Position numbers and translations under genes: made by a program
In this document: positions 1,016 through 64,000 of the stretch, in pieces
How positions within the stretch are numbered: the stretch's first letter is position 1
Layout of the letters: every line of letters starts with the position of its first letter
NCBI GenBank assembly: GCA_044225935.1
Contig: JBGAHX010000020.1
Span: 2,632 to 66,631 of the forward strand
Reading direction: 5' to 3'
Length of the DNA stretch: 64,000 bases
Origin: Gemmatimonadaceae bacterium
GTDB taxonomy: Bacteria > Gemmatimonadota > Gemmatimonadetes > Gemmatimonadales > Gemmatimonadaceae
The notes under the pieces: model-generated
What the model saw: the letters and a program-made list of their open reading frames with translations, nothing else
What the model was told of the DNA's origin: nothing
Database searches by the model: none

Positions 1016-2374
1016 TTGCGGTCGATACTCCTTCGTGATAGGCGGCTCATCTTCGTGTCGAGCACGACCGTTGAAGGCGATTCGACTCCAACCCCCCGCT
1101 TCGTGACCATCGCTCCTTCCCCGGACGCGTCCTCCCCCGGTGCCTCGCTGGTCGACGTCTTTGTCGCGCGACAACCGATCTTCGACGTGTCAGGCGAGAC
1201 CTACGCGTACGAGCTGCTCTATCGGCGAACGGGTGTGACTTCGATCGCCGAAGGGGTGAGCGCCGATGTGATGGCCTCCGAGGTCCTGGTCCACACGTTC
1301 CTGAACATCGGGATGGACCGGATGACCGGAGGGCACCGCGCCTTCCTCAACTTCACGCGCGAAATGCTCGTGCGTGGGATGCACCAGCTCTTCGATCCGC
1401 AGACGGTGGTGATCGAACTCCTCGAAACCGTGGAGCCCGACGACGAGGTCGTTGCCGCGGCAAGAGGACTCGTCGACGCAGGGTACACGCTCGCCCTCGA
1501 CGACTTCGAGTTCAATCCGGCCTTCGAGCCGCTGCTCAAGATGGCGCGCATCATCAAGCTCGACGTCCTGAACAAGACGGAGAAGGAGCTCAAGGCGAAC
1601 TACGATCGCGTCGCGTCGTACGGGGGAACGATCCTCGCGGAGCGTGTCGAAACGCAGGAAGTGAAGGACACCTGCCAGGCGATCGGATACCGCCTCTTTC
1701 AGGGATACTTCTTCAGCAAGCCGGAGACGTTGGCGCGCCGGGACCTGTCGGCGGGGCAGCTCACGATCCTCCGGCTGATGAATCTCTTGCGCGACCCCGA
1801 CACGACGGATGCCGCACTGGAAGACGCGTTCCGGACCGACGTCTCGCTCACCTACAAGCTGCTGCGCACGGTGAACTCGGCGTCGATGGGCGGGCGCGGG
1901 ATCGAGTCGATTCGCCACGCGGTGCGCATGGTGGGGCGCGCCGAGCTGCACAAGTGGCTCTCGCTCCTCCTGGTCACCTCAGTGGCGGGGAAGGGAGGGA
2001 CCGACGCGGAGCTGGTGCGTGTCGCGATCCAGCGCGCGCGCCTCTGCGAGAACGTCGCCCGCCAGGGACGCGACCGCCGCAGCGCCGAGGCGCTGTTCAT
2101 GGTTGGACTCTTCTCCCTCCTCGACGCGATCCTCAAGGTACCGTTAGGCGACGTGCTGCATCGGATCGACCTCACCGACGAGGTGCGTCGGGCCCTCCTG
2201 GCGCGGAGCGGCCCGTACGCGCCGACGCTCTCGCTCGTCGAGGCGTACGAGCGCGGTTCGTGGCACGCGGTCGACGCGGAGTCGCAGGTGCTCGGTGTCG
2301 ATCCGTCGATGCTCGGTGACCTCTACCTCGAAGCGGTGCGCTGGACGCGGGAGCGGATCGAGCAGGCGATGTAG
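1016..2374 (+). CDS. EAL domain plus HDOD domain protein (c-di-GMP phosphodiesterase-like signalling protein)
   Basis: VARQPIFDVSGETYAYELLYR, ALDDFE, IKLDV, ERVETQE...GYRLFQGYFFSKP are EAL-type motifs. The C-terminal half (LRLMNLL...DVSLTYKLLRTVNSA...) looks like HDOD. Exact start uncertain. Confidence 0.75.
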   Translation: MRSILLRDRRLIFVSSTTVEGDSTPTPRFVTIAPSPDASSPGASLVDVFVARQPIFDVSGETYAYELLYRRTGVTSIAEGVSADVMASEVLVHTFLNIGMDRMTGGHRAFLNFTREMLVRGMHQLFDPQTVVIELLETVEPDDEVVAAARGLVDAGYTLALDDFEFNPAFEPLLKMARIIKLDVLNKTEKELKANYDRVASYGGTILAERVETQEVKDTCQAIGYRLFQGYFFSKPETLARRDLSAGQLTILRLMNLLRDPDTTDAALEDAFRTDVSLTYKLLRTVNSASMGGRGIESIRHAVRMVGRAELHKWLSLLLVTSVAGKGGTDAELVRVAIQRARLCENVARQGRDRRSAEALFMVGLFSLLDAILKVPLGDVLHRIDLTDEVRRALLARSGPYAPTLSLVEAYERGSWHAVDAESQVLGVDPSMLGDLYLEAVRWTRERIEQAM

Positions 2375-2396
2375 TCGAGCAAGATCAGGCGAAGCG

Positions 2397-2440
2397 AAAC
2401 GGGCGCGTCCTTCGAGAGGGGCGCGCCCGTTTGCGTTGTT
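2397..2440. terminator. Bidirectional rho-independent terminator between convergent EAL-HDOD and motB
   Basis: AAACGGGCGCG (2397-2407) pairs with CGCGCCCGTTT (2422-2432), an 11 bp stem. A T-rich tract TTTGCGTTGTTG follows, with A-rich sequence on the other side. Confidence 0.7.
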
Positions 2441-2554
2441 GGCACTTGTTAGGCGTTCGTCGATGCTGCGTGGTGATGCTACCTGGAGATGCCGGGCGAT
2501 TCGCAACGTAGCGCGTCCGTCCGCGGGGGCCCGGGGTGCGGAACGCCTGACGCC

Positions 2555-4270: not shown

Positions 4271-4501
4271 CTACGAGGACTTGCTGGCGACGCCGCCCAC
4301 GAGCGCCGCCGCGTCGGCGCCGACATTGGCGCGACGATTCTCGTCGGCGATCTGGGTGACGATTTCCTCCCGCACGATGCTGACGTGCGGCGGCGCCTCG
4401 ATGCCAAGGCGCACACCGCGTCGATCGGAGGCGAGGACGACGATCCGGATGCCGCCTTCGATCACGATGGCGTCCCCGGCGCGTCGGGAAAGGATGAGCA
4501 T
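4271..4501 (-). CDS. csrA: Carbon storage regulator CsrA (flagellar-type)
   Basis: MLILSRRAGDAIVIEGGIRIVVLASDRRGVRLGIEAPPHVSIVREEI is a near-canonical CsrA fold sequence. 4 nt downstream of flgK. Confidence 0.9.
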   Translation of the reverse strand: MLILSRRAGDAIVIEGGIRIVVLASDRRGVRLGIEAPPHVSIVREEIVTQIADENRRANVGADAAALVGGVASKSS

Positions 4502-4505: not shown

Positions 4506-5966
4506 TCAGACCATGTTGAGGATGGACTGCGCCATTTCGTCGGCGACCTTCACGAGCCGGCTCGCCGCCGTATATGCCTGCTGATGCCGCAACATCAACG
4601 TCAGTTCCTCGTCGATGGACACGCCCGCAACGGAGGCGCGACGATTGTCGGCCTGCGTCGAGAGCGCGTCGAACACGTCGAACTGCGACTGCGCGTCGGC
4701 GGTGTCGACGCCGAGCTGCGTCACGGTCGTGGTGTAGTGATCGGAATAGGACTCGCCCGACGCGAAGCCAATCTGCGTGGCGAAGTTCGCGCCCATGCGC
4801 GTCTGCAGCGCGGCCATCCCGTTGTCGTCGCGCAACGCGCCGATCGCCGTGGCGAGTGTGTTGTTGCCGGGGGCGTTCTGCACGTCACCGGACGCGATGA
4901 CCAGGGCGCTCGCCGTCACCTCGCTGGAGAGCCGAATCGTCCCCGCGGTAGTGAAGCTGGAATCGAAGAAGTTCACGCGCGATCCGGTCGGCCCGTTGAG
5001 CGGGTTCCAGTTCGCGTTGCCTAACGCGTCGCCTGCCGCGGTCCAGCCGGACGCATGGTACTCGTTCACGCCGTTCACCAGCCCGCGGGCGAAGTCGTTG
5101 AGGCGCCCCTGCATCGCCGGCACGTCGGTGTTGATGAAGCCGATCATCTGCCCGGCCTGACCGCCCACGACCTGGATCGGCTCGACATCGCCTACCATGG
5201 CGAGATTCGTCGTCGTCGGGGTCGAGCGTACCTCGAGCTGGCGTGCGTTGTTCGCGTCGACGAGCATCAACCCGCCGAGATACACGCCCATGGTGCCGTT
5301 CGCCTGGATCTCCACACGCGCGCCGACAAGCTTCGCGAGCTGGTCGGCAATGCGATCGCGCGCATCGCGCAGGTCGGGTGTCTGCTGCCCCGACACTTCC
5401 GCTGCTGTCAGCTGCTTGTTGATCTCGGCGACCTGCTTCGCCATGGTGTTGACCTGGCCGGCGACGTCGGACAGGTGCCCGCGCGTGCGCACGGTGAGGT
5501 CGTCGATGCGCTGCGAATAGGAGTTGAGCGTGTAAGCCACCTGCTGCCCGCGCTGGCGCACCGCGCTCTGCGCGATGGCACTTCCGGGGTTGTTGGCCAG
5601 GTCGCTCCAGGAATTCCAGAACTGGTCGAGCGTGTTGGCGAGCCCCGATTCCGACGGTTCGCCCAGGAGCCCTTCCACCTCGCCAAGCAGGTCGCGGCGC
5701 ACCGAGTACGACTCGCGGTTGCCGACCTCGCGGCGATACGACGCATCGAGGAGCTCATCGCGCATGCGAATCACGCCGCGCACGCTCACACCGGTTCCCA
5801 CCGTGTAATTGGGGAACCGCTGCGGATACGAGGTGATCATCTCGGCGCGTTGGCGCGAGTACCCCTCGACCTCGGCGTTCGCGATGTTCTGCGACACCGT
5901 CTGCAGGGCGACCTGGTGCGCCGAGATCGCGCCGCGCGCGATGCTGAGGATGCTCCCGATGCTCAT
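4506..5966 (-). CDS. flgK: Hook-associated protein 1 FlgK
   Basis: N-terminal SILSIARGAISAHQVALQTVSQNIANAEVEGYSRQRAE and C-terminal LMLRHQQAYTAASRLVKVADEM are flagellar rod/hook family termini. Size and position fit FlgK. Confidence 0.85.
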   Translation of the reverse strand: MSIGSILSIARGAISAHQVALQTVSQNIANAEVEGYSRQRAEMITSYPQRFPNYTVGTGVSVRGVIRMRDELLDASYRREVGNRESYSVRRDLLGEVEGLLGEPSESGLANTLDQFWNSWSDLANNPGSAIAQSAVRQRGQQVAYTLNSYSQRIDDLTVRTRGHLSDVAGQVNTMAKQVAEINKQLTAAEVSGQQTPDLRDARDRIADQLAKLVGARVEIQANGTMGVYLGGLMLVDANNARQLEVRSTPTTTNLAMVGDVEPIQVVGGQAGQMIGFINTDVPAMQGRLNDFARGLVNGVNEYHASGWTAAGDALGNANWNPLNGPTGSRVNFFDSSFTTAGTIRLSSEVTASALVIASGDVQNAPGNNTLATAIGALRDDNGMAALQTRMGANFATQIGFASGESYSDHYTTTVTQLGVDTADAQSQFDVFDALSTQADNRRASVAGVSIDEELTLMLRHQQAYTAASRLVKVADEMAQSILNMV

Positions 5967-8647: not shown

Positions 8648-9156
8648 GGGTTCCTCGAAGAGGCAATGGCGACGACGTGCGCCGGGCCGGCGACGACGCC
8701 GGTGACGCGGCGCCGCGCGCCGAGACGAACGGGGATGGTGTCGCCTAACGAGCCGGCGACCGGAGCGATGCCGTCGAGCGTGAGCGCGAGGCCGTTTTCC
8801 TGGACGGTGAACGTCACCGTCTGGCCGGCCGCGACAAGCGGGGCGGGGGCGACGGCCGGCGCGCGCAGCACTTCGCCCGCGCGCATGATGCGGCGCACGA
8901 GCCAACCCGGCGCGACCGGCGTCGGGCGGCGGGCGAAGCGACCGTCGGCCGCAACGCAGCGCATGGCGATGTCGCCGGCAAGGAGCGTCGCCCCTCGCGT
9001 GAGCGCGCGCGCCGCGACCGCGACCTCGACGGAGTCGGTGCCGCAGCGCGCGGGTCCCCCCTCCTGCGCCGACAGCGGCGACCGCCCGGAGGCCATCGCG
9101 ACCGCCAGCTGCACGACGAGGAGGAGGAACCAGCGAGAATGCAGGCGCATCGCCAT
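8644..9156 (-). CDS. flgA: P-ring assembly chaperone FlgA (SAF domain)
   Basis: Signal peptide plus a SAF-like C-terminus (LVRRIMRAGEVL...VAAGQTVTFTVQENGLALTLDGIA...GDTIPVRL). Position flgG-flgA-flgH. Confidence 0.75.
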   Translation of the reverse strand: MAMRLHSRWFLLLVVQLAVAMASGRSPLSAQEGGPARCGTDSVEVAVAARALTRGATLLAGDIAMRCVAADGRFARRPTPVAPGWLVRRIMRAGEVLRAPAVAPAPLVAAGQTVTFTVQENGLALTLDGIAPVAGSLGDTIPVRLGARRRVTGVVAGPAHVVAIASSRNP

Positions 9157-9947
9157 CAGCGAATCATGTTGTTGGCGGTGGACATCATCTCCTCGGCGTT
9201 CTTGATCGCCTTGGAGTTGATCTCGTAGGCGCGCATCGCGGTGATCATGTCGACCATCTCCTGCACGATCTCGACGTTGCTCGACTCGAGGTGTCCCTGC
9301 AGGATGCGCCCCATCCCTTCGTCGGCCGGGAAGCCGACCGTCGGCTGCCCGGACGCCGGAGTCTCGGCGAAGAGGTTCTCACCTAACGACTGGAGCCCCG
9401 ACGGATTCATGAAGCGCGCGAGCTCGAGCTGGCCGAGCTCCTGCTTCTCCACCGTGTTGCCGCCGACCGAGACCGAGATCTTCCCGGTCGTCGAGATCGT
9501 GAGCTCGGTAGCGTCGGTCGGGACCTTGATCCCGGGGACGACGGCGTAGCCGCCGCTGGTGATCAACGTTCCAGTGTCGGAGATGCCAAACGATCCGTCG
9601 CGCGAGTAGGCGATTGTCCCGTTGGGCATCTGGATCTGGAAGAAGCCTTCACCCTCGATCGCGAGGTCGAGCGGGCGCGTGGTCTCTTCGACGGCGCCTT
9701 GCGAGTGCAGGCGCTGCACCGAGGCCAGTCGCGTTCCGCGCCCGACCTGCACCGCCGGCATCGTGTTCGTGTCGGGATTCCCGACGACCGACGCTCCCTG
9801 CACCGTCTGGTAGAGGAGATCCTCGAAGTGCGCGCGCGAACCCTTGAAGCCCGTGGTGTTCACGTTCGCGAGGTTGTTGGCGATGACTTCGGTGCGAAGC
9901 TGCTGCGCCATCATGCCGGTGGCGGACGTGCGGAGGGCGGGGTTCAT
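9156..9947 (-). CDS. flgG: Distal rod protein FlgG
   Basis: MNPALRTSATGMMAQQLRTEVIANNLANVNTTGFK ... LESSNVEIVQEMVDMITAMRAYE; 263 aa. Confidence 0.92.
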   Translation of the reverse strand: MNPALRTSATGMMAQQLRTEVIANNLANVNTTGFKGSRAHFEDLLYQTVQGASVVGNPDTNTMPAVQVGRGTRLASVQRLHSQGAVEETTRPLDLAIEGEGFFQIQMPNGTIAYSRDGSFGISDTGTLITSGGYAVVPGIKVPTDATELTISTTGKISVSVGGNTVEKQELGQLELARFMNPSGLQSLGENLFAETPASGQPTVGFPADEGMGRILQGHLESSNVEIVQEMVDMITAMRAYEINSKAIKNAEEMMSTANNMIR

Positions 9948-11147: not shown

Positions 11148-11149
11148 CG

Positions 11150-11905
11150 TTAGGCCGGGGTGCGGAAGTGGGCGAGTTCGGAGCGCAGGCGCGAGAGCGC
11201 CTTGGCGCGAATCTGCGACACGCGCGACTCGGTGAGCTCGAGGACATCGGCGATCTCGTGCAGCTTGAGCTCCTCGAAGTAGTAAAGCGTGAGAACGATG
11301 CGCTCCTGCTCCTTGAGGCGGGTGAGCGCCTGCTTGAGGATCTCCTTCTCCTGCTCGCGATTGATCTCGTCTTCGATGTTGTTGTCGTGCGGATCGCTCA
11401 GCGCCTCCGGCGGGAGGAACGGTTGCCCGTCCTGTTCGGTCGCCCCCTGGTCGAGCGAGACCTGCACGGCGTTCTCGGTATCGGCCTGCCAGCGCCAGAG
11501 CGTTCCGAGGTCGAGGCCAAGGTGCTCGGCCACCTCCTTGTCGCTGGCGGGGCGTCCGAAGATGCGGGTCAGCGTCTCGCGCGCCTGCGAGATCTCGCGC
11601 GTCTTGCGGCGGATCGAGCGCGGGACGTGATCCTGCCGGCGAAGCTCATCGAGGATCGCGCCGCGGATGCGCGGCACGGCAAACGTGGAAAAGGCGAGAC
11701 CGCGCGACGGCTCGAAGGCCTCGAGCGCGTTCATCAGGCCAATGGTCCCGCACGAGACGAGTTCGTCGAAATCTGCTGGCGCAGCGAGCGCCTTCGAGAG
11801 CTGGCGCGCGACGTGATGCACGAGATTGAGATTCTCCGTGAGGAGCTTCTCTCGCGCCATCAGATCGCCGCTGGCGAAGGCGTCCCAGAGATTCTCGGTG
11901 GACAT
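11150..11905 (-). CDS. fliA: Flagellar sigma factor FliA (sigma28)
   Basis: Regions 2-4 of a group 3 sigma factor (LVHHVARQL..., GTIGLMNALEAFEPSRGLAFSTFAVPRIRGAILDELR, LKLHEIADVLELTESRVSQIRAKAL). Follows flhF-flhG as in many flagellar clusters. Confidence 0.88.
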   Translation of the reverse strand: MSTENLWDAFASGDLMAREKLLTENLNLVHHVARQLSKALAAPADFDELVSCGTIGLMNALEAFEPSRGLAFSTFAVPRIRGAILDELRRQDHVPRSIRRKTREISQARETLTRIFGRPASDKEVAEHLGLDLGTLWRWQADTENAVQVSLDQGATEQDGQPFLPPEALSDPHDNNIEDEINREQEKEILKQALTRLKEQERIVLTLYYFEELKLHEIADVLELTESRVSQIRAKALSRLRSELAHFRTPA

Positions 11906-12743: not shown

Positions 12744-13576
12744 GCAGCGCGCGTGGATGCGGTGCCGGTGGAGAGCCCGAGCGCGCCGAGAATGTGGGCG
12801 CGCGACGGATGCAGGTCATCGGGGACCGCATGCCCGTCGGTGATCCAGCGGATCGGGAGGTCGACGCGCGCTGCGACGTCGGCGATCGCGCGTTCATCGT
12901 GCAGCTCGTCGACCTTGGAGATGATGGCGTGCGTGAGTCGGCACGGCGCCATCGCCTGCACGAGCGAGGGGACGGCGTCCGGTCGTAAAGTCGCGGGGAG
13001 TACCAGGTGCACTTCGTCGGGCGTGAGCGCACGGAGGAGCTGCTGCCACTGGGCGTTGGCGTCCTTCGAGCGCGGAGAGCGCCCGGGCGTGTCGATGATC
13101 ACGACGTCGCGATCGTCGAGGCGTTTCATCACGGCCGGCACTTCGCGCGCATCGTAGAGCACTTCGAGCGGGAGGTTCGTGACCTCGGCATACTGCTGCA
13201 TCTGCTCGAGCGCGCCGACGCGATAGGTGTCGAGCGTGATAAGCCCCACCTTGCGGCTGCCGAAGACGGCGCGATGCAGCGCGAGCTTTGCCGCCACAGT
13301 TGTCTTTCCGGCGCCGGTCGGACCGACGAGGGCGATGAGGAGCGGACCGCTGCGCCCGCGCCCGCCCTGTCCGCGCGGGAGCGACGGCGGGGCCGGTTCG
13401 AGGCGCTTGCGAAGCGCCGCCAGGTCCTGCTGGCGGGCGGCGATCACCTCGACGCGGGTCACGCCCCCCTCCTTCGAGACGGCGCTGCGGATGACGAGCA
13501 CGTCGTCGCCTAACGCGCGCCGCGCGTCGTCGAAGACGCGACGGAGGTCTGTGCCGTGGAAGGTCTCAAGCAGCAT
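12740..13576 (-). CDS. flhF: SRP-type GTPase FlhF
   Basis: LVGPTGAGKTTVAAKLA, DTYRVGA, IIDTPGRS and SKVDE are G1-G4 motifs of SRP-family GTPases. Follows flhA. Confidence 0.85.
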   Translation of the reverse strand: MLLETFHGTDLRRVFDDARRALGDDVLVIRSAVSKEGGVTRVEVIAARQQDLAALRKRLEPAPPSLPRGQGGRGRSGPLLIALVGPTGAGKTTVAAKLALHRAVFGSRKVGLITLDTYRVGALEQMQQYAEVTNLPLEVLYDAREVPAVMKRLDDRDVVIIDTPGRSPRSKDANAQWQQLLRALTPDEVHLVLPATLRPDAVPSLVQAMAPCRLTHAIISKVDELHDERAIADVAARVDLPIRWITDGHAVPDDLHPSRAHILGALGLSTGTASTRAA

Positions 13577-15659
13577 GGGTCAGCTCCCAGGTGGCGACGG
13601 AGTTCAGCTTCACGGTGGTCGGCAGTTCGGCGAGCGAGATCACGGGGAGCGTGGCGAGCACCGGCTCGACCAGGCGCCTGACGCCGATGCGCAGCGACGG
13701 CGGCGTGATCAGCGGCGGGAGGCGCCCTTCGCTGGCGTGGGTGGTGGCGAGGAAGTTGAGTTCGCGGAGCAGGTCGGCGAGCAGGTCGGGCGTGAGCGGT
13801 GCGAGCCCGGCCGGCGCGTTGCGCGGCGAGAAGAGTCCCATGAGCGACGCCTCGAGGCGCGGCCCGATCGTGATTCCGCGAACGGCACCCGCCGGATCCG
13901 AATAGGCACGGGCAATAACGTTCGACAGCGCGCGCCTCACGTGTTCGGTGAGCACCTCGGCATCCTTCGTCTGCTCGACGCCGTCGCCGAGCGCCTCGAG
14001 GATCGTGACCATGTCGCGGATGGGGATGCGCTCGCGCAGGAGGCGCTGCAGCACGCGGTGGAGGAGCCCCAACGACACCTTGCTGGGCACGAGGTCCTCG
14101 ACGAGCGCCGGGTGCGTGCGCTTGAGCGTCTCGACCATTTCCTGCACGTCCTGCCGCCCAAGGAGCTCGGCGGCATTGACCTTGAGCGACTCCATCAGGT
14201 GCGTGGCGATCACCACTGCCGGCTCCACGACCACGTAGCCTAACGACTCGGCTTCCACCCGGCGCGAGGAGGCGATCCAGCGCGCGGTGAGCCCGAACGC
14301 CGGATCGATGGTTTCGATCCCTTCGATCCCATGGATCACCGAGCCGGTGTCGAGCGCGAGGTGGAAGCGCGGCATCACCTCGGCGCGGGCGATCTCCGAG
14401 CCGCGCAGCTTGATGACGTACTCGTTCGCCGGCAGGTGCAAGTCGTCGCGCACGCGGATCGGTGGGATGAGGATCCCCACCTCGAGTGCGGCCTGCTTGC
14501 GCAGCAGTTGGATGCGCTCGAGGAGGTCACCCCCCTGACGCTCGTCGACGAGTGGAATGAGCGCGTAGCCGACTTCCAGCTCGATCGGGTCGATCTGCAG
14601 GAGGTCGCGCATCGGGTCGGCCGGCTTCTCCGGCTCCTTCGTGGCCTCGGTCGCGGCTTCACGCGCTTCCTTTGTACGGTCGGCTTCGGCCTGCGCCGCC
14701 ATGCGGGCGAGGAAGAAGAGCGTTCCGCCGATCGCGAGGAAGGGAAGCTTGGGAAGCCCCGGAATGAGGCCGAAGGTGGTGAGCACTCCAGCGGCGACGT
14801 ACATCGCACGCGGATACGCGGCGAGCTGCTGGCTCACCTGCGCGCCCATCTTCGCCTGACCCGACGCGCGCGTCACCATGATGCCGGCGGCCGTCGAGAC
14901 GATCAGTGCGGGGACCTGCGCGACGAGTCCTTCACCGACGGTGAGGATCGTGTACTGCGATGCGGCCTGCGCGAGCGGGAGCCCGCGCTGGATGACCGCG
15001 ATGAAGATCCCGCCGAGGATGTTGATGCCGGTGATGAGGAGCGCGGCGATCGCGTCGCCCTTCACGAACTTCGACGCACCATCCATCGCGCCGTAGAAGT
15101 CGGCCTGCCGCGCGATCTCCTCGCGGCGACGGCGCGCCTCACCCTCGTCGATCAATCCCGCCGAGAGGTCGGCGTCGATCGCCATCTGCTTGCCGGGCAT
15201 CGCGTCGAGGGTGAAGCGCGCCGCCACTTCGGCGACGCGTCCGGCACCCTTCGTGATCACGATGAAGTTGATCCCGATCAGGATCAGGAAGAGGACGACA
15301 CCTACCGCGTAGTTGCCGCCGATGACGAACTGCCCGAAGGCCTGAATCACCTGTCCAGCGTGCCCTTCCGAGAGGATGAGGCGCGTACTGGCGAAGTTGA
15401 GCCCCAGTCGAAAGAGCGTGAGCAGGAGCAGCAGGGCAGGGAACGACGAAAACTCGAGCGGCTCCCGCGTCTGCATCGTGGTGAGGAGCACCACCAGCGA
15501 TAGCGCGATGCTCGTCGCCAGGAGCAGGTCCAGGATGAACGACGGGAGCGGAACGATCATCAGGCCGAGCACGAACACCACCGCGATGGCGAGTCCCATC
15601 TCGGCGTTGCGCCTGGCGAAGCCCTCGGCGCTCGGCAGCGGGCGGACCGCGGTACTCAT
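13566..15659 (-). CDS. flhA: Flagellar export gate protein FlhA
   Basis: 697 aa. FlhA/InvA-family TM region and cytoplasmic domain (FVKGDAIAALLITGINILGG, VGEGLVAQVPALIVSTAAG). Confidence 0.95.
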   Translation of the reverse strand: MSTAVRPLPSAEGFARRNAEMGLAIAVVFVLGLMIVPLPSFILDLLLATSIALSLVVLLTTMQTREPLEFSSFPALLLLLTLFRLGLNFASTRLILSEGHAGQVIQAFGQFVIGGNYAVGVVLFLILIGINFIVITKGAGRVAEVAARFTLDAMPGKQMAIDADLSAGLIDEGEARRRREEIARQADFYGAMDGASKFVKGDAIAALLITGINILGGIFIAVIQRGLPLAQAASQYTILTVGEGLVAQVPALIVSTAAGIMVTRASGQAKMGAQVSQQLAAYPRAMYVAAGVLTTFGLIPGLPKLPFLAIGGTLFFLARMAAQAEADRTKEAREAATEATKEPEKPADPMRDLLQIDPIELEVGYALIPLVDERQGGDLLERIQLLRKQAALEVGILIPPIRVRDDLHLPANEYVIKLRGSEIARAEVMPRFHLALDTGSVIHGIEGIETIDPAFGLTARWIASSRRVEAESLGYVVVEPAVVIATHLMESLKVNAAELLGRQDVQEMVETLKRTHPALVEDLVPSKVSLGLLHRVLQRLLRERIPIRDMVTILEALGDGVEQTKDAEVLTEHVRRALSNVIARAYSDPAGAVRGITIGPRLEASLMGLFSPRNAPAGLAPLTPDLLADLLRELNFLATTHASEGRLPPLITPPSLRIGVRRLVEPVLATLPVISLAELPTTVKLNSVATWELTHAA

Positions 15660-17854: not shown

Positions 17855-19258
17855 CTACTTGAAGCCCTGCACAAGCGATTGGATCAGTAGTGCCCATCCG
17901 TCAACCAGCACAAACAGCAGCAGCTTGAAGGGGAGGGCGATCATCGCGGGCGGGAGCATGAACATGCCCATGCTCATCAGGATCGAGCTGACGATGATGT
18001 CGATGACGATGAACGGGAGAAACAGGACGAAGCCGAGCTGGAAGGCGGTGCGCAGTTCGCTGGTGACGAAGGCGCTGGTGAGGACGATGGTCGAGACATC
18101 CTCGGGGCGCGCCGGCGGTGCTTCACCGCTCATGTCGACGAAGGCGGCGACGTCGCGCTCGCGCACCTGGCGGAGCATGAAGTCGCGCATTGGGCCGAGG
18201 GCGTTCTTCATCATCGCCCCCTGCTCGATCTGCCCGTCGAGCCACGGCGTGATCGCCACCCGATTCACTTCCTTCATCGTCGGCGCCATCACGAAGCCCG
18301 TCAGGAGCAACGCGAGGGCGCTGATGAGCTGAGCCGGGGGAGCCGTCTGCGTACCGAGCGCCTGCTTGAGGAACTGCAGGACGATCAGGATGCGCGTGAA
18401 GCTCGTCATCATGAGAACGAGCGTCGGGAGGAGCGTCAGCAGCCCGAGCATGATCACCACGCCGACCGAGCCGCTGAGCCGGAGCCCGCCCGGGCCGCTC
18501 CCGTCGACGCTGAGGTCCAGCTTCGGCATCGCCTTGCCTAACGCGTCGTCGAGTGAGGTCGACCCCTGTGCCGCCGGCACGGTGCTCGTCGCGGCGCGAG
18601 GCTGGGCCACGCCCTGCGGCGTGGCGGTCGCCGGACGCCCGTTGGCTGGCGCCGGTCCCGCTCCCCTCGTCGCGCCGTTCCGGGGCGCGCCTTGCGCCGC
18701 TCCCGCGGCGGCACCCTGTGGTGCTCCCTGTGCGCCTTGCGGTCGTGCGGGAGCTCCCGTCGCCTGGCGATTCGCTGGGGCATTCGTCGCCGCACCGGTG
18801 GCGCCGGCGCCAGTCGCCGCCTGTGCGAACGAGAGTCGCGGCGTGACGGCGAGCGACACGCCCGCCAGCAGCAACAGCGGAAGTCCCGCCGAGCGCAGGC
18901 CGTGCATCAGCGCGGCGCGAAAGTCGCGCGGCGCGCCGGGCGCGCCGGAAATGGGACCGGTGATCGCCTCGCGCACCGGGGCCGGCGCATTCGCCGCCTC
19001 CGCGTCGAGTTCGGCGATCGCGCGCACTCCCCCCTCGCCCACACTCACCGCAACGAGCTGCCCCCCGATGCGCACCACCGCGATCCCCTGACGGGGACCG
19101 AGCGCGATGCGCTGCACGATCTCGAGCTGCACGCCACCTTTGGATTTCCCCAGCGCCGCGCCGTTCGACACCTTGCGCAGGACGCGCATGGTGATCGCCA
19201 GCAGCGCCAGGACGAAGGCCAGGGTCAGCGCGACACCGACGAGCGACGCAAAGCTCAC
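17855..19258 (-). CDS. fliP: FliO and FliP encoded in one uninterrupted reading frame (fusion, or fliP initiating internally at 18907)
   Basis: aa 1-85 are FliO-like (one TM helix, then VQLEIVQRIALGPRQGIAVVRIGGQLVAVSVGEGGV). An internal MHGLRSAGLPLLLLAGVSLAVTPRLSFAQA looks like the FliP signal peptide. The C-terminus is canonical FliP (MTSFTRILIVLQFLKQALGTQTAPP...). Confidence 0.85.
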   Translation of the reverse strand: MSFASLVGVALTLAFVLALLAITMRVLRKVSNGAALGKSKGGVQLEIVQRIALGPRQGIAVVRIGGQLVAVSVGEGGVRAIAELDAEAANAPAPVREAITGPISGAPGAPRDFRAALMHGLRSAGLPLLLLAGVSLAVTPRLSFAQAATGAGATGAATNAPANRQATGAPARPQGAQGAPQGAAAGAAQGAPRNGATRGAGPAPANGRPATATPQGVAQPRAATSTVPAAQGSTSLDDALGKAMPKLDLSVDGSGPGGLRLSGSVGVVIMLGLLTLLPTLVLMMTSFTRILIVLQFLKQALGTQTAPPAQLISALALLLTGFVMAPTMKEVNRVAITPWLDGQIEQGAMMKNALGPMRDFMLRQVRERDVAAFVDMSGEAPPARPEDVSTIVLTSAFVTSELRTAFQLGFVLFLPFIVIDIIVSSILMSMGMFMLPPAMIALPFKLLLFVLVDGWALLIQSLVQGFK

Positions 19259-30398: not shown

Positions 30399-30401
30399 GC
30401 G

Positions 30402-46630: not shown

Positions 46631-47049
46631 GCGTAGGCGCGCCTGCCGTTGCCACCGAGCTTCGCGCTCTCTTCGAGCGCTTCACCGCGCTGAGCGAGGA
46701 CGCGATGCGCGCGTGTGACGCCGGCGACGTCGACGCACTCGAGCGCGCGCTCGAGGCGCGCGAGCAGATCACCGGACGGGTCGCCGTCCTGGATCATTCG
46801 CTCGGCGCGATGCGCAACGCGCTGCTTAGCACCGCGGGGCGCGATGCCTTCGATGCCACGCTGCGCACCGCGCGCGCGGCGGCCGCCCTCGCCGAGCGGC
46901 GCAATGCCGAGTTGGCCGAGCGCGCACGCACCGCGCGCACCGTCATCGGGGCCACGATCGACCGCCTGCGTCACGACGCGGCTGCCCAGGCGGCCTACGC
47001 CGCTGCCTCCGAGCGCGACGACGCGCCGCATTTCGACCGTACCCGTTAG
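46627..47049 (+). CDS. Hypothetical helical protein after fliS (possible FliT/FlgN-type chaperone)
   Basis: Translationally coupled to fliS (ATGA overlap) and predicted all-helical by eye. Function inferred from position only. Confidence 0.45.
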   Translation: MSVGAPAVATELRALFERFTALSEDAMRACDAGDVDALERALEAREQITGRVAVLDHSLGAMRNALLSTAGRDAFDATLRTARAAAALAERRNAELAERARTARTVIGATIDRLRHDAAAQAAYAAASERDDAPHFDRTR

Positions 47050-47066
47050 GCACGAGGACGCACGCC

Positions 47067-49156: not shown

Positions 49157-49801
49157 GTGCCCTCGTACTCGCTCCACGGCTTCGCTCTGCGCCCGATCGC
49201 CTCCTTGGCAACGGCAGAGGATCAGCGAGACATACTCGAGCTGCTCGAGGCGCGGTCGATCACCGACTTCGCCCACCACGCGGAAACGGTCGTCAGTCGC
49301 GTGCGTGATCGCGAAGTTCGCTGCCTCGGTGGATACGCCGATCTCGCGCCCCGCTCGCGGGACATGACCCGAGCACTCCTCGACGCCGTCGAGGACGCGC
49401 GCGACGGCGGCGCGGAGGCATTCCCCGCGGACTACGACCGGCTCCTCGCGATCGTGTGCGATCCCGAATCCGCCGGCGTCTCCGAGGCGCCGCTCGTTCC
49501 CGGCGCGTTAGGCGGGAGCGCGTCGCCCAGGGTGGCCGCCATCGGCGCCTGCGCTGGTCGCGATCCGCTTGAAGACGGAGGTGCGGGCGATCCCGCTTCC
49601 CCAACCCCTGATCAAGCGACCGCGCGGCACGGCGGAGATCGCGTTGCCGGGTCGACAGTCCGCGTGCGCAACACCGCGCTCGGCCGCCTCATCGAGATGG
49701 TCGCCGAGCAGGTGGGCGACGGCCGCGAGCGCCTCCTCCTCGACATCGATCGCGTCCGCTCCGCAACCGAGGTCCGGTCCATCGCCTCCGCCGACGCCTG
49801 A
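49157..49801 (+). CDS. Hypothetical protein in the che cluster
   Basis: 214 codons with reasonable third-position GC. No recognisable motif. GTG start in track. Confidence 0.4.
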   Translation: MPSYSLHGFALRPIASLATAEDQRDILELLEARSITDFAHHAETVVSRVRDREVRCLGGYADLAPRSRDMTRALLDAVEDARDGGAEAFPADYDRLLAIVCDPESAGVSEAPLVPGALGGSASPRVAAIGACAGRDPLEDGGAGDPASPTPDQATARHGGDRVAGSTVRVRNTALGRLIEMVAEQVGDGRERLLLDIDRVRSATEVRSIASADA

Positions 49802-54518: not shown

Positions 54519-55274
54519 TTGATCTCCTTACAAGGCGTCCACAAGGCGTTCGGCCCAAAGAAAGTGCTGCAGGGCTTCTCCCTCGACGTCGAAGAAGGGG
54601 AGACGATGGTGATCATCGGCTATTCCGGAACCGGAAAGTCGGTGGCGATCAAGCACATCGTGGGACTGCTGGAACCTGACGAGGGACGCGTCGTCGTCGA
54701 TAACCTCGACGTCCCCAAGCTCTCGCGACGCGAACTGTACGCGCTGCGCGCGCGCATTGGCTACGTCTTCCAGTTCGCGGCACTGTTCGACTCGCTCTCC
54801 ATCGGCGAAAACGTCGCGATGGGGCTCCGCAAGCAGGGACAGCTTTCGCTGAAGGAGATCGACGAGCGCGTGCACGAAGTCCTCGAACTCGTCGACCTGC
54901 CTAACGTTCAGGACCGTTTTCCCGCCGAGCTCTCCGGCGGGATGCGCAAGCGAGTCGGTCTCGCACGGGCCATCGCCCTACGCCCGAAATACATCTTGTA
55001 CGATGAGCCGACGACCGGGCTCGATCCCGTCACCAGCGCGGTGATCGACGAGCTCATGGTGCGCATGCGCGAAAAGCTCGGCGTGACCAGCATCGTCATC
55101 ACCCACGACATGCGAAGCGCCTATCGCGTCGGGACGAAGATCGCGATGCTCTACGAAGGGAAAGTGCGCCAGGTCGGAACCGTCGACGAGATCCGCAACA
55201 CCGACGACCCGATCGTGCGGCAGTTCGTCGAAGGACGCCCCGAAGTCGACGCCGAACCTACCCGGGAGGACTGA
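54519..55274 (+). CDS. ABC transporter ATP-binding protein, MlaF/Ttg2A-like (no permease gene adjacent)
   Basis: LISLQGVHKAFG, Walker A GYSGTGKS, signature LSGGMRKRVGLARA, Walker B ILYDEPTTGLD. Start taken at the in-frame TTG 54519, because the upstream part of the track ORF is the repeat. Confidence 0.85.
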   Translation: MISLQGVHKAFGPKKVLQGFSLDVEEGETMVIIGYSGTGKSVAIKHIVGLLEPDEGRVVVDNLDVPKLSRRELYALRARIGYVFQFAALFDSLSIGENVAMGLRKQGQLSLKEIDERVHEVLELVDLPNVQDRFPAELSGGMRKRVGLARAIALRPKYILYDEPTTGLDPVTSAVIDELMVRMREKLGVTSIVITHDMRSAYRVGTKIAMLYEGKVRQVGTVDEIRNTDDPIVRQFVEGRPEVDAEPTRED

Positions 55275-55746: not shown

Positions 55747-56577
55747 ATGACGCACGCGCTCCCCGGGACACCGGTGGCTTTGGCGGTCGTCGTCCTGGCC
55801 AGCCGAGATCGCGCCCGTAACCTCGTCAAGGACGCCTTCCCGCGGCGTCGCACCCGCCTAACGCTCGCGCGAAACATCCGCGAGTTCGAGCGCGCCTTTC
55901 GCACCGGACTGGTAGACGCGGCGCTCGTCGATCTCGGCGGACCCGTGGAGGACGTGATGCGCGCGATCGAACTCGCGCGCGAATTTCCCAGCGCGCCGTT
56001 CTTCGGCCTGACCCCATTCCGCCCGAGCGACGCCGCGTTCTGCGCGCGCGCCGCGACGTTCGACTTCGCCGGACTCCTCGTCGAAGGCGTCGACGATCAC
56101 GTGCTGCGCGAAATCGTCGCGCCCCGAGCCTTCACCACGCGCTTCGCCGAGGCGCTCGCCACTCCCCCCGAATCGCTCCACCTCGAGACGCCACTCCGCG
56201 TTGCGTCGTGGCGGGTGCTCGTCTCGCACGCGGGACGGCCGCTGCATACGGATGTCGTGGCGCGTGAGCTGGGTGTGACCCGGGAGCACCTGAGCCGAGC
56301 CTTCGGTGCCTCCGGCGCCCCCAATCTCAAGCGGGTGATCGACCTCGTACGCCTTGCCGCCGCCGCCGAGCTCTCAAAAAACCCGGGCTACGACGTCGGC
56401 GACGTGGCGCGCGTCCTCGGCTTCGCCTCGTCGTCGCACCTGAGCACCACGTCGCAACGCATCGTCGGGATTCGTCCGACCTCCTTGGCGCGCCTACGAA
56501 CCGTCGACCTGGTCGAGCGCTTCATCCACGGCCGGATGCGGAGCCGGCCCGCGACAGTGAAGGGGCGGCGGGGCTAA
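55747..56577 (+). CDS. AraC-type HTH transcriptional regulator
   Basis: C-terminal VARELGVTREHLSRAF...AAAELSKNPGYDVGDVARVLGFASSSHLSTTSQRIVGIRP is an AraC-family double HTH. Start at the internal ATG 55747. Confidence 0.7.
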   Translation: MTHALPGTPVALAVVVLASRDRARNLVKDAFPRRRTRLTLARNIREFERAFRTGLVDAALVDLGGPVEDVMRAIELAREFPSAPFFGLTPFRPSDAAFCARAATFDFAGLLVEGVDDHVLREIVAPRAFTTRFAEALATPPESLHLETPLRVASWRVLVSHAGRPLHTDVVARELGVTREHLSRAFGASGAPNLKRVIDLVRLAAAAELSKNPGYDVGDVARVLGFASSSHLSTTSQRIVGIRPTSLARLRTVDLVERFIHGRMRSRPATVKGRRG

Positions 56578-56581: not shown

Positions 56582-56697
<116 letters not shown>

Positions 56698-56908: not shown

Positions 56909-58477
56909 ATGGCCTCCGACACGATCCTTCGCCCAGGCGAAATCAAGGACATTCTCCTCCGCGAAATCGAGGCGGCGGACCTGCACGGACTCGACGTAGA
57001 AGAGGTTGGGACGGTCCTCGAGGTGAAGGACGGCGTGGCCCGTATTTACGGCCTCCGCAAGGCGATGGCCGGCGAGATGCTCGAGATCGCGTCCTCCGAA
57101 ACGGGGAACAAGATCACCGCGCTCACGCTGAACCTCGAAGAGGACAACATCGGCGCGGTGGTCCTCGGTGACTACCTGCAGCTCAAGGAGGGGGACGAGG
57201 TGCGGCGCACCGGGCGCGTGCTCGAAGTCCCGGTCGGTCCCGCCCTCGTCGGGCGCGTGGTCGATCCGCTCGGCCGTCCGGTCGACGGCAAGGGCTCGAT
57301 CGAGACCCCGCACACCCGCCTCGTCGAATCGCCGGCTCCCGGCATCATCGTTAGGCAGCCGGTGAAGGAGCCGATGCAGACCGGGATCAAGTCGATCGAC
57401 GCGATGATCCCGATCGGGCGCGGCCAGCGCGAGCTCATCATCGGCGACCGCGGCACCGGCAAGACGGCGATCGCGATCGACACGATCATCAACCAGAAGG
57501 GACAAGGGGTCATCTGCGTCTACGTCGCCATCGGGCAGAAGGCGTCGACGGTTGCCTCGGTGGTCGAGAAGCTCCGCCAGCAGGGGGCGATGGACTACAC
57601 CATCGTCGTCGTCGCCTCCGCGTCGGACCCGGCCCCGATGCAGTACATCGCCCCCTACACGGGCGCAGCGATGGCCGAGTACTTCATGTACGACGAAGGA
57701 CAGGCGACGCTTTGTGTGTACGATGACCTGTCCAAGCAGGCCGCCGCGTATCGCCAGCTCTCGCTCGTGCTCCGCCGCCCGCCGGGACGCGAGGCATTCC
57801 CGGGCGACGTCTTCTATCTCCACTCCCGTCTCCTCGAGCGCGCCGCCAAGTTGCGCGAGGATCAGGATGTGGTCGACGGCAAGACGATCAAGAAGCCGGG
57901 TGGCTCGCTCACCGCGCTCCCGATCATCGAGACGCAGGCCGGTGACGTGTCGGCCTACATCCCGACGAACGTCATCTCGATCACCGACGGACAGATCTTC
58001 CTCGAGACCGACCTGTTCTTCTCGAACGTGCGCCCGGCGATCAACGCCGGTATCTCGGTGTCGCGCGTCGGTGGTTCGGCGCAGATCAAGGCCATGCGCT
58101 CGGTTGCCGGCCGCCTCCGCCTCGACCTCGCGCAGTACCGCGAGCTCGAAGCCTTCGCCGCGTTTGCCTCGGACCTCGACGCCGCCACCAAGAAGCAGCT
58201 CGAGCGCGGCGCCCGCACGGTGGAAGTGCTCAAGCAGCCGCAGTACGCGCCGATGCCGGTCGAGCAGCAGGTGATGATCATCTACGCGGTCTCGAACGGC
58301 TTCATCGACGACGTCCCGGTCGCCAAGGTGCGCGAGTGGGAGCGCGGCTTCCTCGACTTCATGGCCGCGCAGTGGCCCCAGGTCGGCGACGCCATCCGCA
58401 AGGAGAAGGTCCTCTCGAAGGACACGGAGGCGACCCTCAAGAACGGCATCGCCGCCTATAAGAAGGTAGCGAAGTGA
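56909..58477 (+). CDS. atpA: F1 ATP synthase alpha subunit
   Basis: Walker [16 protein letters not shown] and overall canonical alpha sequence; 522 aa. Confidence 0.97.
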
Positions 58478-59387: not shown

Positions 59388-60967
<1,580 letters not shown>

Positions 60968-61952: not shown

Positions 61953-62282
61953 GCGGCTTCTCGCGCGCGGGAGAGCGGGCGTGGCAGCGTACGACCCGAT
62001 CGCTGCCTGACGATGCCAGCGTTGTGACACCGCGCGCTGCCTGACGACACGCGTCGCCTGACGACGCGTGTCGGTGCGGCGCGAGTCAACCGCGATATTT
62101 CCTCGCGTGCGCTCCGACGCGCGTCGATCTGCGAGAGCGCCGTGCCGCTTGTCGCTGACGAGCACGTGCAGCGAATCTTCCGTGTGCCTCTGGCGTATCA
62201 CAGGCACACCGCCCCCGCGCCCCTCGCGGGGCGCTGGTTCGCATCCATCCGGGCGCCTACCGCCCGTGCACGAGGACTCGTC

Positions 62283-62981
62283 ATGCAGGGATTCCGCACC
62301 GCGCGCGTCGCGGCGATCGCGCCGCGCACTGCGCGCGCCTGGTTCTATCTTCTCGCCGCGGCTGCGGCGCTCCTCCCGTTCTTCGCCCGTAGTGCGCACG
62401 CTCAGGCCTGGGCGTACCCATCCTTCCAACCGCCGGCCGTCACATCGCGCGAGTTCAACTTCGGCATCGCCGACGCTGGCGACGCGGGAACGGCGATCGT
62501 CTTCCAGTGGCGTGAGGGATACTCCGCGCGCTCGCAGTTCTCCTTCGACGCCGGCTTCGCCGACCCGCAGGCGCGCGGCGCCGACAACGTCCTCTTCCTC
62601 GGCGGCAACTTCGGATACCAGCTCGCCAAGTCGTCGGCCGACGTGCCGCTCGACTTCATGCTGACCGCCGGCGCCGGCCTCGGATTCGGCAACAAGACCA
62701 CGCTCCGCGTCCCGGTGGGCGTCTCGATCGGACATCGCTTCCCGCTCGACGGCACGCTCGCGCTCACACCGTACGTGCACCCGCGCGTTTCGCTCGACTT
62801 CTGCAGCTCGTGCGGCGGCGACGATTCGCAGGTGGGGATCAATTTCGACATCGGCGCAAACCTCGAACTCACGCGCGTACTCGCGCTCCGCGGTACGGCT
62901 TTCTTCGGCGGCTCCGACCGGTTCGGCAACGACGGGATCGGGATCTCGCTCGCCTGGACGCCGCCCGGGCTTCGGCGTTAG
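62283..62981 (+). CDS. Hypothetical secreted protein, probable outer-membrane beta-barrel
   Basis: Signal peptide ending AHAQA. Alternating hydrophobic beta-strand pattern and aromatic-rich C-terminus (IGISLAW). Start taken at the internal ATG 62283. Confidence 0.5.
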   Translation: MQGFRTARVAAIAPRTARAWFYLLAAAAALLPFFARSAHAQAWAYPSFQPPAVTSREFNFGIADAGDAGTAIVFQWREGYSARSQFSFDAGFADPQARGADNVLFLGGNFGYQLAKSSADVPLDFMLTAGAGLGFGNKTTLRVPVGVSIGHRFPLDGTLALTPYVHPRVSLDFCSSCGGDDSQVGINFDIGANLELTRVLALRGTAFFGGSDRFGNDGIGISLAWTPPGLRR

Positions 62982-63092
62982 GCAGTCCGCCTCGGCGCAC
63001 GTACGCGCGGTGCCTGCTTCACGCGTCCACCGGTAGTCGCACCCTCGGCGCCAAGCGCCGACCTCGGCGTGGCTACCGGTCTTCGCTTGTCG

Positions 63093-64000
63093 CTACTTGT
63101 CGCGACGTCCGTCGAGCAGAGAGGCCACGAGATCGTACGACCGGTCGGCGGCACCGACGCCGCTCGCCACGAGCGCGCGGGCGCAATCGCCCGCTTGGCG
63201 ACGCGCATCGTCGTCCCCAAGCCAACCGAGCATCGTGTCGGCGGCGCTCTCTGCATCACGGACGATCGCAGCACCCCCCGACTCCACGAGGAGCGAGGCG
63301 TCGCGCGCATTCGCGATGCGCGGGCCGAAGGCGACCGGTGCGCCGAACGCCGCGGGCTCCAGGACCGAGTGCAGTCCGGCCGCATGAAAGCCTCCGCCGA
63401 CGAAGGCGGCACTGGCAAGCGCGTACAGGTCACCGAGCACTCCCACGCGATCCACCAGCACGACCGGCGCCGCGCTCGCTCCCGGCGTCCCGAGCCGAGC
63501 CACGGCGATGCCGTGCGCCGACCCCCACGCCTCGATCGGCGTGAGATGCCCTTCGGTCGGCTCGTGCGGGGCGATGATCAGTCGCGCGGCGGGGAGCGCG
63601 TTGCGCACCTCACGCCACGCCTCGAGGAGGACGCGCTCGTCGGCCGGCCAGGTACTCCCCGCGACCAGCGTGGGTGCGGCGCTCTCGAGCGGCGCGAGCA
63701 GGGGCGCGGTGCGATCGACGTGCGCGGCGCGCGCAGCGACCTGGTCGTAGCGCGTGTCGCCGGTCACGATGATACGGCGCGGATCGGCGCCTAACGCGGC
63801 GAGTCGATCACCATCGGCAGCGGCGACAGCGCCGATCGCGTCGAGCGAGCGGTAGGCATCACGAAGGAGCGCGTCGGCCACTCCACGCTGACGCGTCGAG
63901 TTCGGAGCCACCGTGCCGCTGACCAGGCCGACCTTCACTCCGCGACGGCTGGCGTACGCGGTGAGGAGCGGCCAGACGTCCAGCTTTGCATAGACGAGCG
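63093..64000 (-). CDS. waaA: 3-deoxy-D-manno-octulosonic acid (Kdo) transferase, C-terminal part (N-terminus beyond right edge)
   Basis: LVSGTV...IIVTGDTRYDQV...LVAGSTWP.DE...LIIAPHEP...VLVDRVGVLGDLYALASAAFVGGG is KdtA/WaaA-like. The frame stays open to the window end. Confidence 0.75.
   Translation of the reverse strand, partial: LVYAKLDVWPLLTAYASRRGVKVGLVSGTVAPNSTRQRGVADALLRDAYRSLDAIGAVAAADGDRLAALGADPRRIIVTGDTRYDQVAARAAHVDRTAPLLAPLESAAPTLVAGSTWPADERVLLEAWREVRNALPAARLIIAPHEPTEGHLTPIEAWGSAHGIAVARLGTPGASAAPVVLVDRVGVLGDLYALASAAFVGGGFHAAGLHSVLEPAAFGAPVAFGPRIANARDASLLVESGGAAIVRDAESAADTMLGWLGDDDARRQAGDCARALVASGVGAADRSYDLVASLLDGRRDK

Follow-up and report, generated by a model that had tools for sequence, protein, structure and literature searches.

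The question raised by a 64,000-nt stretch of Gemmatimonadaceae bacterium DNA (assembly GCA_044225935.1, contig JBGAHX010000020.1, positions 2,632-66,631, forward strand; hereafter the window, by which the whole stretch is meant) is why a single 8-base word, CGTTAGGC (reverse complement GCCTAACG, both strands being counted), recurs so often in a genome with a GC content of 67%. The window encodes a partial Rho, MotAB, CsrA, a near-complete flagellar and chemotaxis set, a tRNA cluster, a sigma factor, F1 ATP synthase and WaaA, and its FlhA and AtpD point to uncultured Gemmatimonadaceae. Gene models were built from codon statistics, giving 66 genes that occupy 88% of the window, and were compared with Pfam and with the called genes of relatives. 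The results presented below indicate that CGTTAGGC is a genome-wide signature word, read in double-stranded DNA and specific to one subclade, where genome-wide statements are based on this one 64-kb window and on pieces of 4.5-22 kb from relatives.

In the window, 23 exact copies of the word were found, 10 on the plus and 13 on the minus strand. All of them had been listed in the original prediction, in which a single coordinate, 30978 on the minus strand, had to be corrected to 30977. Dinucleotide-preserving shuffles (n=100) contained on average 0.81 ± 0.88 copies and never more than 3, and an order-3 Markov model led to 1.16 expected copies, making CGTTAGGC the most exceptional 8-mer in the window. 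Synonymous-codon shuffles (n=300) yielded means of 1.5-1.8 copies and a maximum of 6, and the analytic codon usage predicted 0.43 in-frame copies where 19 were observed. The expectation of 2-3 copies proposed beforehand was therefore, if anything, too high (nulls of 0.8-1.8), and the codon-aware null that had been suggested as a refuting test, at about 1.5 copies, left the motif unrefuted. A codon-usage artefact was rejected by both the analytic codon-aware null and the codon shuffling. The Poisson tail for the copy number in the window is at most 5e-18. Since the Markov and codon expectations are inflated by the motif's own contribution, these fold-excesses are conservative. The 7-mer list of the window was headed by the sub-words CGTTAGG (30) and GTTAGGC (25), the former total including the seven additional heptamers that had been predicted (9382, 22938, 28061, 37136, 39738, 59383 and 59820).

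The word appeared to be sharply bounded. When the 23 copies were aligned, their flanks showed no conserved base beyond the octamer, save what the next codon imposes, and a longer motif was rejected on these grounds. The spacing of the copies in the window was random, with a mean gap of 2.8 kb, a coefficient of variation of 0.8 and a Kolmogorov-Smirnov comparison with the exponential distribution giving p=0.73. Inside the motility/chemotaxis region, with 17 copies per 49.5 kb, the density was like that of the remainder, with 6 in 14.5 kb.

The relation between the motif and the codon that it most often uses was also made clear. TTA represented 18 of the 1,920 Leu codons in the window, in agreement with the earlier claim that it is otherwise very rare, so that a common TTA, which would have spoken against the motif, was not found. 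TTA was followed by GGN (Gly) in 17 of these 18 cases, preceded by NCG in 16, and placed in the exact CG-TTA-GGC context in 13. Among the 29 NCG-Leu-GGC sites in the window, 13 carried TTA, and the remaining 16 used the Leu codons in ordinary proportions. Because TTA is almost confined to the motif context, it is the motif that accounts for TTA use and not the reverse. The approximately 17 in-frame Leu-Gly copies of the original prediction corresponded to 13 exact NCG-TTA-GGC and four other TTA-GGN.

Copies were then assigned to classes in 12 ingroup loci (265 kb), in which 99 copies were found, covering motility and housekeeping regions. The sense x-Leu-Gly frame contained 69 of them, the antisense Pro-Asn frame 10, the sense Val-Arg frame 3 and the antisense Leu-Thr frame 1, and another 9 lay across a stop codon (CGT-TAG-GC or antisense GCC-TAA-CG), five antisense TAA stops being built by the motif. 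The remaining 7 copies (7%) were intergenic, compared with 12.9% of the sequence (p=0.10), which represents neither a clear depletion nor a clear enrichment of the motif in intergenic DNA.

Frame occupancy was determined in 8 ingroup loci (198 kb). The synonymous-compatible [APST]-Leu-Gly sites were occupied in 62 of 228 cases (27%), against 0.81 expected from codon usage, and the synonymous-compatible antisense Pro-Asn sites in 6 of 22 (27%), against 0.51. The sense Val-Arg (2/92) and antisense Leu-Thr (1/63) frames were little used. Thus, occupancy was 27% in each of the two frames in which positions 2, 5 and 8 of the motif fall on wobble positions, and ~2% in the two in which positions 1, 4 and 7 do. 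The Val-Arg deficit may be due to the need for two rare codons; codon rarity does not account for the Leu-Thr deficit, as CTA is less avoided than TTA. The use of all frames, as originally proposed, thus held for several frames and both strands, with ~70% of copies in Leu-Gly, and the Val-Arg, Pro-Asn and Leu-Thr copies that had been named do exist. The excess in antisense, stop-codon and intergenic positions makes an explanation based on RNA or on codon pairs insufficient, and the earlier preference for a force at the DNA level over a codon-pair preference was borne out by the antisense Pro-Asn frame and by the stop-codon and intergenic copies. The motif is a signal read at the DNA level, the placement of which is steered by coding constraints.

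For the comparison with relatives, the syntenic flagellar locus was taken along a gradient of FlhA identity. Scans with FlhA (genome contigs) and FlgE (metagenome contigs), in which distant flagellar homologues dominated the matches listed and one or two ingroup loci were found in each, also served as negative controls. The motif was present in all ten ingroup loci (FlhA at least 77% identical, or FlgE 84%), and ranked first or second among the 8-mers of seven of them, the other three being short (4.5-7.0 kb). It was the top 8-mer in L082 (FlhA 94% identical to that of the window; 11 copies in 22 kb), L083 (89%; 16 in 19 kb), L084 (89%; 15 in 15 kb), L085 (84%; 11 in 22 kb), L086 (81%; 7 in 22 kb) and L089 (77%; 9 in 22 kb), and ranked second in L088 (79%; 5 in 22 kb). 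It was not among the top 8-mers in L002 (FlhA 78%; 3 in 4.7 kb), L092 (FlgE 84%; 2 in 4.5 kb) and L087 (2-3 copies in 7.0 kb). The loci around the atp operon of three more relatives, each of 21 kb, harbored 5, 2 and 5 copies where ~0.2 would be expected, which indicates that the motif is not bound to flagellar genes, though its density varies. A flagellar-regulon signal or promoter was rejected, because housekeeping genes and the surroundings of the atp operon in relatives had an equal density. The confinement of the motif to this region, also named earlier as a possible refutation, was not observed, since it was found throughout the window and in relatives, at ~1 copy per 1-4 kb over most of the DNA sampled.

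Outside this group, the word practically disappeared. Sister Gemmatimonadota presented no copies in a total of ~280 kb (L090, L091, L003, L093-L106), which takes in L090 (FlhA 73% identical), L091 (71%) and L003 (66%) as well as ~225 kb from other high-GC relatives, whose FlgE is 55-66% identical. As for other phyla, 3 copies occurred in ~1.44 Mb of the FlhA set and 4 in the remainder of the FlgE set of ~1.0 Mb, in both cases among the matches listed. The motif is restricted to one subclade of uncultured Gemmatimonadaceae.

Within this subclade, the word was highly specific. In the 8 pooled ingroup loci, CGTTAGGC occurred 85 times against 3.8 expected, and most of its 24 one-mismatch variants showed little or no excess. 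Of these variants, CGTTAGGT alone reached a large fold-excess (16 vs. 2.8 expected), and one copy of it in the window (9382..9389, minus strand) encodes Ser-Leu-Gly in flgG; CGTCAGGC was in about twofold excess (33 vs. 14.3) and TGTTAGGC in small excess (5 vs. 1.7). It follows that essentially all eight positions are specified. The only candidate for a sister-clade dialect, AACGGCAA in L098 and L099, was rejected, as it corresponded to a tandem (AACGGC)n array. This hexanucleotide array, placed at 17708-17867 in L098 and 15786-15799 in L099, both outgroup Gemmatimonadota-like contigs, was not dispersed.

The history of individual sites was followed by mapping them on orthologous codons of 13 loci, which revealed 43 distinct positions. 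At these positions, the outgroups always harbored ordinary codons (CGCTCGGC, CGCTGGGC and similar). Many motif sites were private to a single lineage, and others, such as flhF codon 21 and flgK:314, were widely common. About half of the positions corresponded to conserved Leu-Gly dipeptides, in which the change is synonymous; the remaining ones were variable, with Leu in place of Phe, Ile, Val, Met or Tyr, as found for flhA:309, flhA:472, flhB:245, fliP:239, fliP:353 and flgA:136. Between L083 and L084, which are 98.65% identical, 14 sites were common and one differed by Phe/Leu (CGTTCGGC vs. CGTTAGGC). In L082, which has 84% nucleotide identity to the window, six of the eight window sites were kept, compared with 25.6% of all aligned 8-mers being identical, so that sites are lost and gained and yet are preferentially retained. 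At larger distances, third codon positions were near saturation (~50% identity) and the sharing of sites was about that expected from independent gain at ~27% occupancy, leaving deep pairs uninformative and only the nearest relative informative. The overall picture is that of a persistent, clade-wide force by which sites are created and maintained and their loss is tolerated.

The orientation of the copies tracked the gene strand. Minus copies prevailed in the flagellar operons of the minus strand (3-33 kb) and plus copies in the genes of the plus strand (36-63 kb), with the exceptions located in genes of the opposite strand. Leu-Gly occupancy was 10 of 34 sites in minus-strand genes and 3 of 23 in plus-strand genes (p=0.2). 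The gene-orientation switch at 33-37 kb presented neither a DnaA-box cluster nor an AT-rich stretch, and a replication origin at this place was rejected for this reason; most likely, the window lies within one replichore. If so, a Chi-like skew of 75% is at odds with the observed 13:10 (p=0.04), a figure drawn from a single 64-kb window. No strand polarity was seen within the window, and this evidence, limited as it is, disfavors a replication-polar motif.

These properties altogether (asymmetry, sharpness, a 15- to 80-fold excess, placement against codon bias, clade-wide occurrence, random spacing and lack of polarity within the window) assign CGTTAGGC to the class of lineage "watermarks". 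The asymmetric members of this class with a known mechanism are the DNA uptake sequences (DUS) of Neisseriaceae and Pasteurellaceae, in which a molecular drive results from biased uptake and subsequent recombination, and for this reason an uptake-sequence-like self-recognition tag was ranked first, ahead of the readings modeled on the cyanobacterial HIP1 (highly iterated palindrome 1), on Chi, on biased repair and on RNA signals. This reading is put forward tentatively, as a possibility that falls short of being probable. Slightly more confidence, still below an even footing, may be placed in the broader proposal that the octamer is the cis element of an undescribed sequence-recognition system, which could be either an uptake/self-recognition sequence or a new sequence-directed gene-conversion drive.

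According to the uptake reading, a highly sequence-specific force would hold the word at ~1 copy per 1-4 kb despite GC content and codon bias. Coding constraint would channel most copies to the near-silent frame [Ala/Ser/Pro/Thr]-Leu-Gly, NCG-TTA-GGC, and the remaining ones to the antisense Pro-Asn frame, across TAG/TAA stops and between genes. A clade-specific DNA receptor of competent cells might preferentially bind and import fragments bearing the word, which homologous recombination would then install. New copies would spread by molecular drive, and the word would end up marking "self" DNA.

The Neisseriaceae DUS (GCCGTCTGAA core, with dialects) and the Pasteurellaceae uptake signal sequences (USS; AAGTGCGGT core) resemble the motif in being short, asymmetric and lineage-specific, in reaching ~1 copy per 1-4 kb, far above composition, and in lying inside genes in the least costly frames; for the motif, no replication polarity was seen within the window. 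Their fold-excess is comparable with the 15- to 80-fold excess of the motif, that of Chi being far smaller, and in Neisseria the specific uptake receptor is ComP. Inside reading frames, one orientation of both USS and DUS is favored (PMC2346458), and DUS are shared by related species, with clade-level variants (PMC3630211). However, DUS and USS comprise 9-12 bp plus flanks, whereas the motif has 8 bp and unconserved flanks, and it lacks their intergenic enrichment, their terminator pairs and their enriched one-mismatch variants, of which it has hardly any.

Several observations weigh against the uptake reading. The density of USS and DUS is higher in intergenic than in genic DNA, and no such enrichment was found for the motif, with 7 of the 99 copies in the 12.9% of sequence that is intergenic. 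No inverted motif pairs were found at terminators in the window, the closest pair being direct and 52 bp apart. Compared with USS or DUS, the word is shorter and has sharper bounds; its density differs ~10-fold between lineages and loci, and its distribution over frames is less even than expected of a drive entirely indifferent to orientation, as illustrated by the antisense Leu-Thr frame. Moreover, no documentation of natural competence in Gemmatimonadota was found in the literature. As far as the 64-kb window is concerned, it contains no type IV pilus, ComEA, ComEC or DprA genes. In the literature searched, no relevant report of CGTTAGGC was found, nor of an uptake sequence, competence or an over-represented octamer in Gemmatimonadota.

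The alternatives differ in what would read the word. It may be selected because a clade-specific DNA-binding protein or methyltransferase recognizes it, with no uptake bias, as has been considered for HIP1 (GCGATCGC) of cyanobacteria, for which roles in nucleoid or chromosome organization or as an epigenetic self-mark have been proposed. [quoted passage not shown] HIP1 was reported to be 15- to 300-fold enriched, a range within which the 15- to 80-fold excess of the motif falls, with no peptide or RNA role and with its function unresolved (PMC5861425), and was linked to transformation efficiency in a preprint (bioRxiv 10.1101/2024.09.10.611283). However, HIP1 is a palindrome linked with cognate methyltransferases, whereas CGTTAGGC is asymmetric, not its own reverse complement, contains A/T at 67% GC and is found in a much narrower clade. 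Besides, its gaps were exponential, with no periodic spacing in 64 kb (a length too short for periods of 10-90 kb), and the window harbored no DNA methyltransferase or nucleoid-protein gene, FkbM and CheR not being DNA methyltransferases. A HIP1-like signature is thus considered unlikely. The candidate explanation of a Chi-like hotspot, included in the original prediction, would require that the RecBCD/AddAB-type enzyme of the clade recognize the octamer and switch from degradation to RecA loading, protecting self DNA. Chi sites (E. coli GCTGGTGG and lineage equivalents) are asymmetric, lineage-specific 5-8-mers, sharply defined and over-represented, and the motif shares this asymmetry, clade specificity, length and sharpness. 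Chi, however, is co-oriented with replication, and known Chi sites are composed of frequent codons and only modestly in excess; the motif, with 10 plus and 13 minus copies, changes orientation with the gene strand, the window has no sign of an origin, and the magnitude of its excess, the nearly forbidden codon that it forces and the amino-acid replacements that it entails exceed known Chi behavior. This origin is regarded as quite unlikely, the 75% skew being rejected if the window is one replichore. The same lack of polarity in the window sets the motif apart from the octamers that orient FtsK and SpoIIIE, the FtsK-orienting polar sequences (KOPS) and SpoIIIE recognition sequences (SRS) (GGGNAGGG, GAGAAGGG), which are likewise over-represented genome-wide but show >80% skew toward dif; a study that treated such skewed guide motifs described KOPS as G-rich, strongly polar toward dif and sparser (PMC3384302), and the motif is not G-rich.

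A neutral process was also weighed, in which a mismatch processing analogous to very-short-patch (VSP) repair, or gene conversion, would turn near-cognates into CGTTAGGC, the word having no function of its own. Its construction against codon bias, the occupation of both strands, the turnover between species and the sharing of sites at deep divergence, close to the equilibrium-occupancy prediction, would all fit such a process. Nevertheless, no one-mismatch precursor was depleted (CGTTGGGC 9 vs. 12 expected, CGCTAGGC 2 vs. 0.9), which gives no support to the VSP-type candidate of the original prediction, and the Leu codons at unoccupied NCG-Leu-GGC sites matched general usage. Known VSP repair drives T to C with effects of only ~2-fold, unlike the two changes toward A/T required here, and the retention of sites between the window and L082 was above background. 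Biased repair is therefore held to be improbable, no less so than the Chi-like hotspot. Least probable of all, and very unlikely, is an RNA or translation signal, in which CGUUAGGC in mRNA or the UUA-GGC pair would act as a ribosome pause, a bldA-type switch or a site for RNA-protein binding or cleavage, as for CsrA. Approximately 80% of the genic copies are sense and 70% lie in one frame, the antisense Leu-Thr frame is hardly occupied, and the window carries CsrA and FliW genes. On the other hand, antisense copies were >10-fold enriched, as seen in the Pro-Asn frame (6 vs. 0.5) and the five antisense TAA stops, intergenic copies exist, and the density is equal in housekeeping and motility genes. 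The motif lacks the GGA core that CsrA sites have, and tRNAs were the only known RNA families in the window. With the bldA-type control of Streptomyces, the motif has in common that TTA is very seldom used for Leu in a high-GC genome; a tRNA-limited switch, however, needs no fixed flanks on either side of TTA, whereas here TTA is locked in NCG-TTA-GGN and is found in roughly a quarter of the genes, of all kinds, and the word is also enriched in antisense and at stops.

To our knowledge, hyper-abundant watermarks of this type have been described for very few lineages, namely Neisseriaceae, Pasteurellaceae and cyanobacteria. For two of the three, they revealed the discrimination between own and foreign DNA during transformation. 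The present word would be the third or fourth independent example, from a phylum in which hardly any genetics exists, and would point to natural transformation or another form of self-recognition in abundant uncultured bacteria of soil and wastewater. If the uptake reading proved true, it would be the first DNA-uptake/self-recognition sequence outside Proteobacteria, implying that an uncultured Gemmatimonadaceae clade of soil and wastewater undergoes natural transformation with a preference for self DNA; if a gene-conversion drive were responsible, it would write an 8-mer into genomes with enough strength to overrule both codon usage and amino-acid sequence. The motif may also serve as a simple marker for assigning contigs to the clade and spotting foreign DNA in it, and it would guide DNA design for the genetic manipulation of these organisms. 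It would further provide a natural experiment in which a DNA-level drive is opposed to codon usage and protein sequence, with 27% of compatible Leu-Gly sites occupied and an unused codon revived.

The individual copies illustrate these placements. On the minus strand, Ala-Leu-Gly was encoded in sense in flgK (5019..5026, GCG-TTA-GGC; gene 4506-5966), corresponding to flgK:314, which is common to 6 ingroup genomes, near the flhF N-terminus (13508..13515; 12740-13576), at codon 21, common to 8 ingroup loci, in the fliO/fliP gene (18536..18543; 17855-19258), where other lineages have Val-Ala, Leu-Ser and similar, in fliH (28832..28839; 28670-29296) and in waaA (63789..63796; 63093 to beyond 63998, minus strand). 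Ser-Leu-Gly was found in flgA (8743..8750, TCG-TTA-GGC; 8644-9156), the L083/L084 orthologue of which has CGTTCGGC (Phe), in flhA (14238..14245; 13566-15659), with Phe, Val or Tyr in several relatives, in flgE (22277..22284; 21614-22909), where outgroups have CGCTCGGC, and in flgD (23180..23187; 22940-23644), and Pro-Leu-Gly in fliI (28465..28472; 27349-28677). The copy at 30977..30984 (minus strand) is placed in sense in fliF in the GTT-AGG (Val-Arg) frame. Two further minus-strand copies are antisense to plus-strand genes, namely that at 54899..54906 in the Pro-Asn frame of an ABC ATPase gene (54564-55274) and that at 55856..55863 in the CTA-ACG (Leu-Thr) frame of an AraC-type helix-turn-helix gene (55780-56577).

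The plus-strand copies in sense comprised Pro-Leu-Gly (CCG-TTA-GGC) at 2142..2149 in an EAL/HDOD gene (1055-2374), Ala-Leu-Gly at 38950..38957 in a TPR-repeat gene (37344-39743) and at 49506..49513 in an ORF with no Pfam match (49157-49801), and the GTT-AGG (Val-Arg) frame of atpA at 57349..57356 (56909-58477). Antisense to minus-strand genes, the CCT-AAC (Pro-Asn) frame was used at 24363..24370 in a fliK-like gene (23641-26205) and at 31655..31662 in fliF (30402-31943). As had been anticipated, four copies supplied stop codons, the TAA (GCC-TAA-CG) of fliA (11148..11155; gene 11150-11905, minus strand) and of fliF (30400..30407), both from the antisense strand, and the TAG (CGT-TAG-GC) of the ORFs 46627-47049 (47044..47051) and 62283-62981 (62976..62983).

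The longest motif-free gap of the window, of 8 kb (38958-47043), includes a glycosyltransferase, an FkbM gene, flagellin, FliD and FliS. The glycosyltransferase and the FkbM-family methyltransferase (39749-42116) are placed immediately upstream of flagellin (42327-43421), an arrangement that suggests flagellin glycosylation. CsrA (4271-4501, minus strand) is encoded directly downstream of flgK, a placement kept in all relatives, and FliW at 36513-37010 (plus strand), which suggests a CsrA-FliW-flagellin partner switch in Gemmatimonadaceae like that of Bacillus. The tRNA cluster (52345-53145, minus strand), found between the chemotaxis genes and a sigma-70-family gene, comprises Pro-CGG, Arg-ACG, Val-GAC, Gly-GCC and Ala-GGC, and a tRNA-Arg(CCG) at 844-917 (minus strand) adjoins rho; no tRNA-Leu(UAA) was found in the window.

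At nine places, the spacer directly upstream of a start codon is filled with short tandem arrays (9957-9989, 17810-17843, 54492-54516, 58481-58514, 56589-56692, 41254-41284, 59389-59415, 59495-59523 and 35444-35530), most of them pyrimidine-rich on the coding strand. They consist of (CTCGTCTT)x3-4 before flgG, fliQ, the ABC ATPase gene and atpG, (CCGCGTTCT)x11.6 before atpA, (GTCTCCC)x4 before the FkbM gene, (GACGGGA) and (CCCGTCC) before atpD, and (GGAAGTGCGAGATCG)x5.8 at 35444-35530. The AGAAGACG k-mers were also among the top 8-mers in L083, L084, L172 and L174. These arrays may function as leaders or in translation initiation.

A single fused ORF of 467 amino acids (17855-19258, minus strand) encodes FliO and FliP, and the fusion was found in most relatives (411-436 amino acids), the two being split in L082 and L090. 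In two of the loci compared, TonB-dependent-receptor-like genes (CarboxypepD_reg/Plug) were inserted in the flagellar cluster, at 977-4231 in L088, where they replace fliK-flgD-flgE, and at 14940-17916 in L091, between fliA and flgB. One of the genes inserted in L088 bears a motif copy at 1914.

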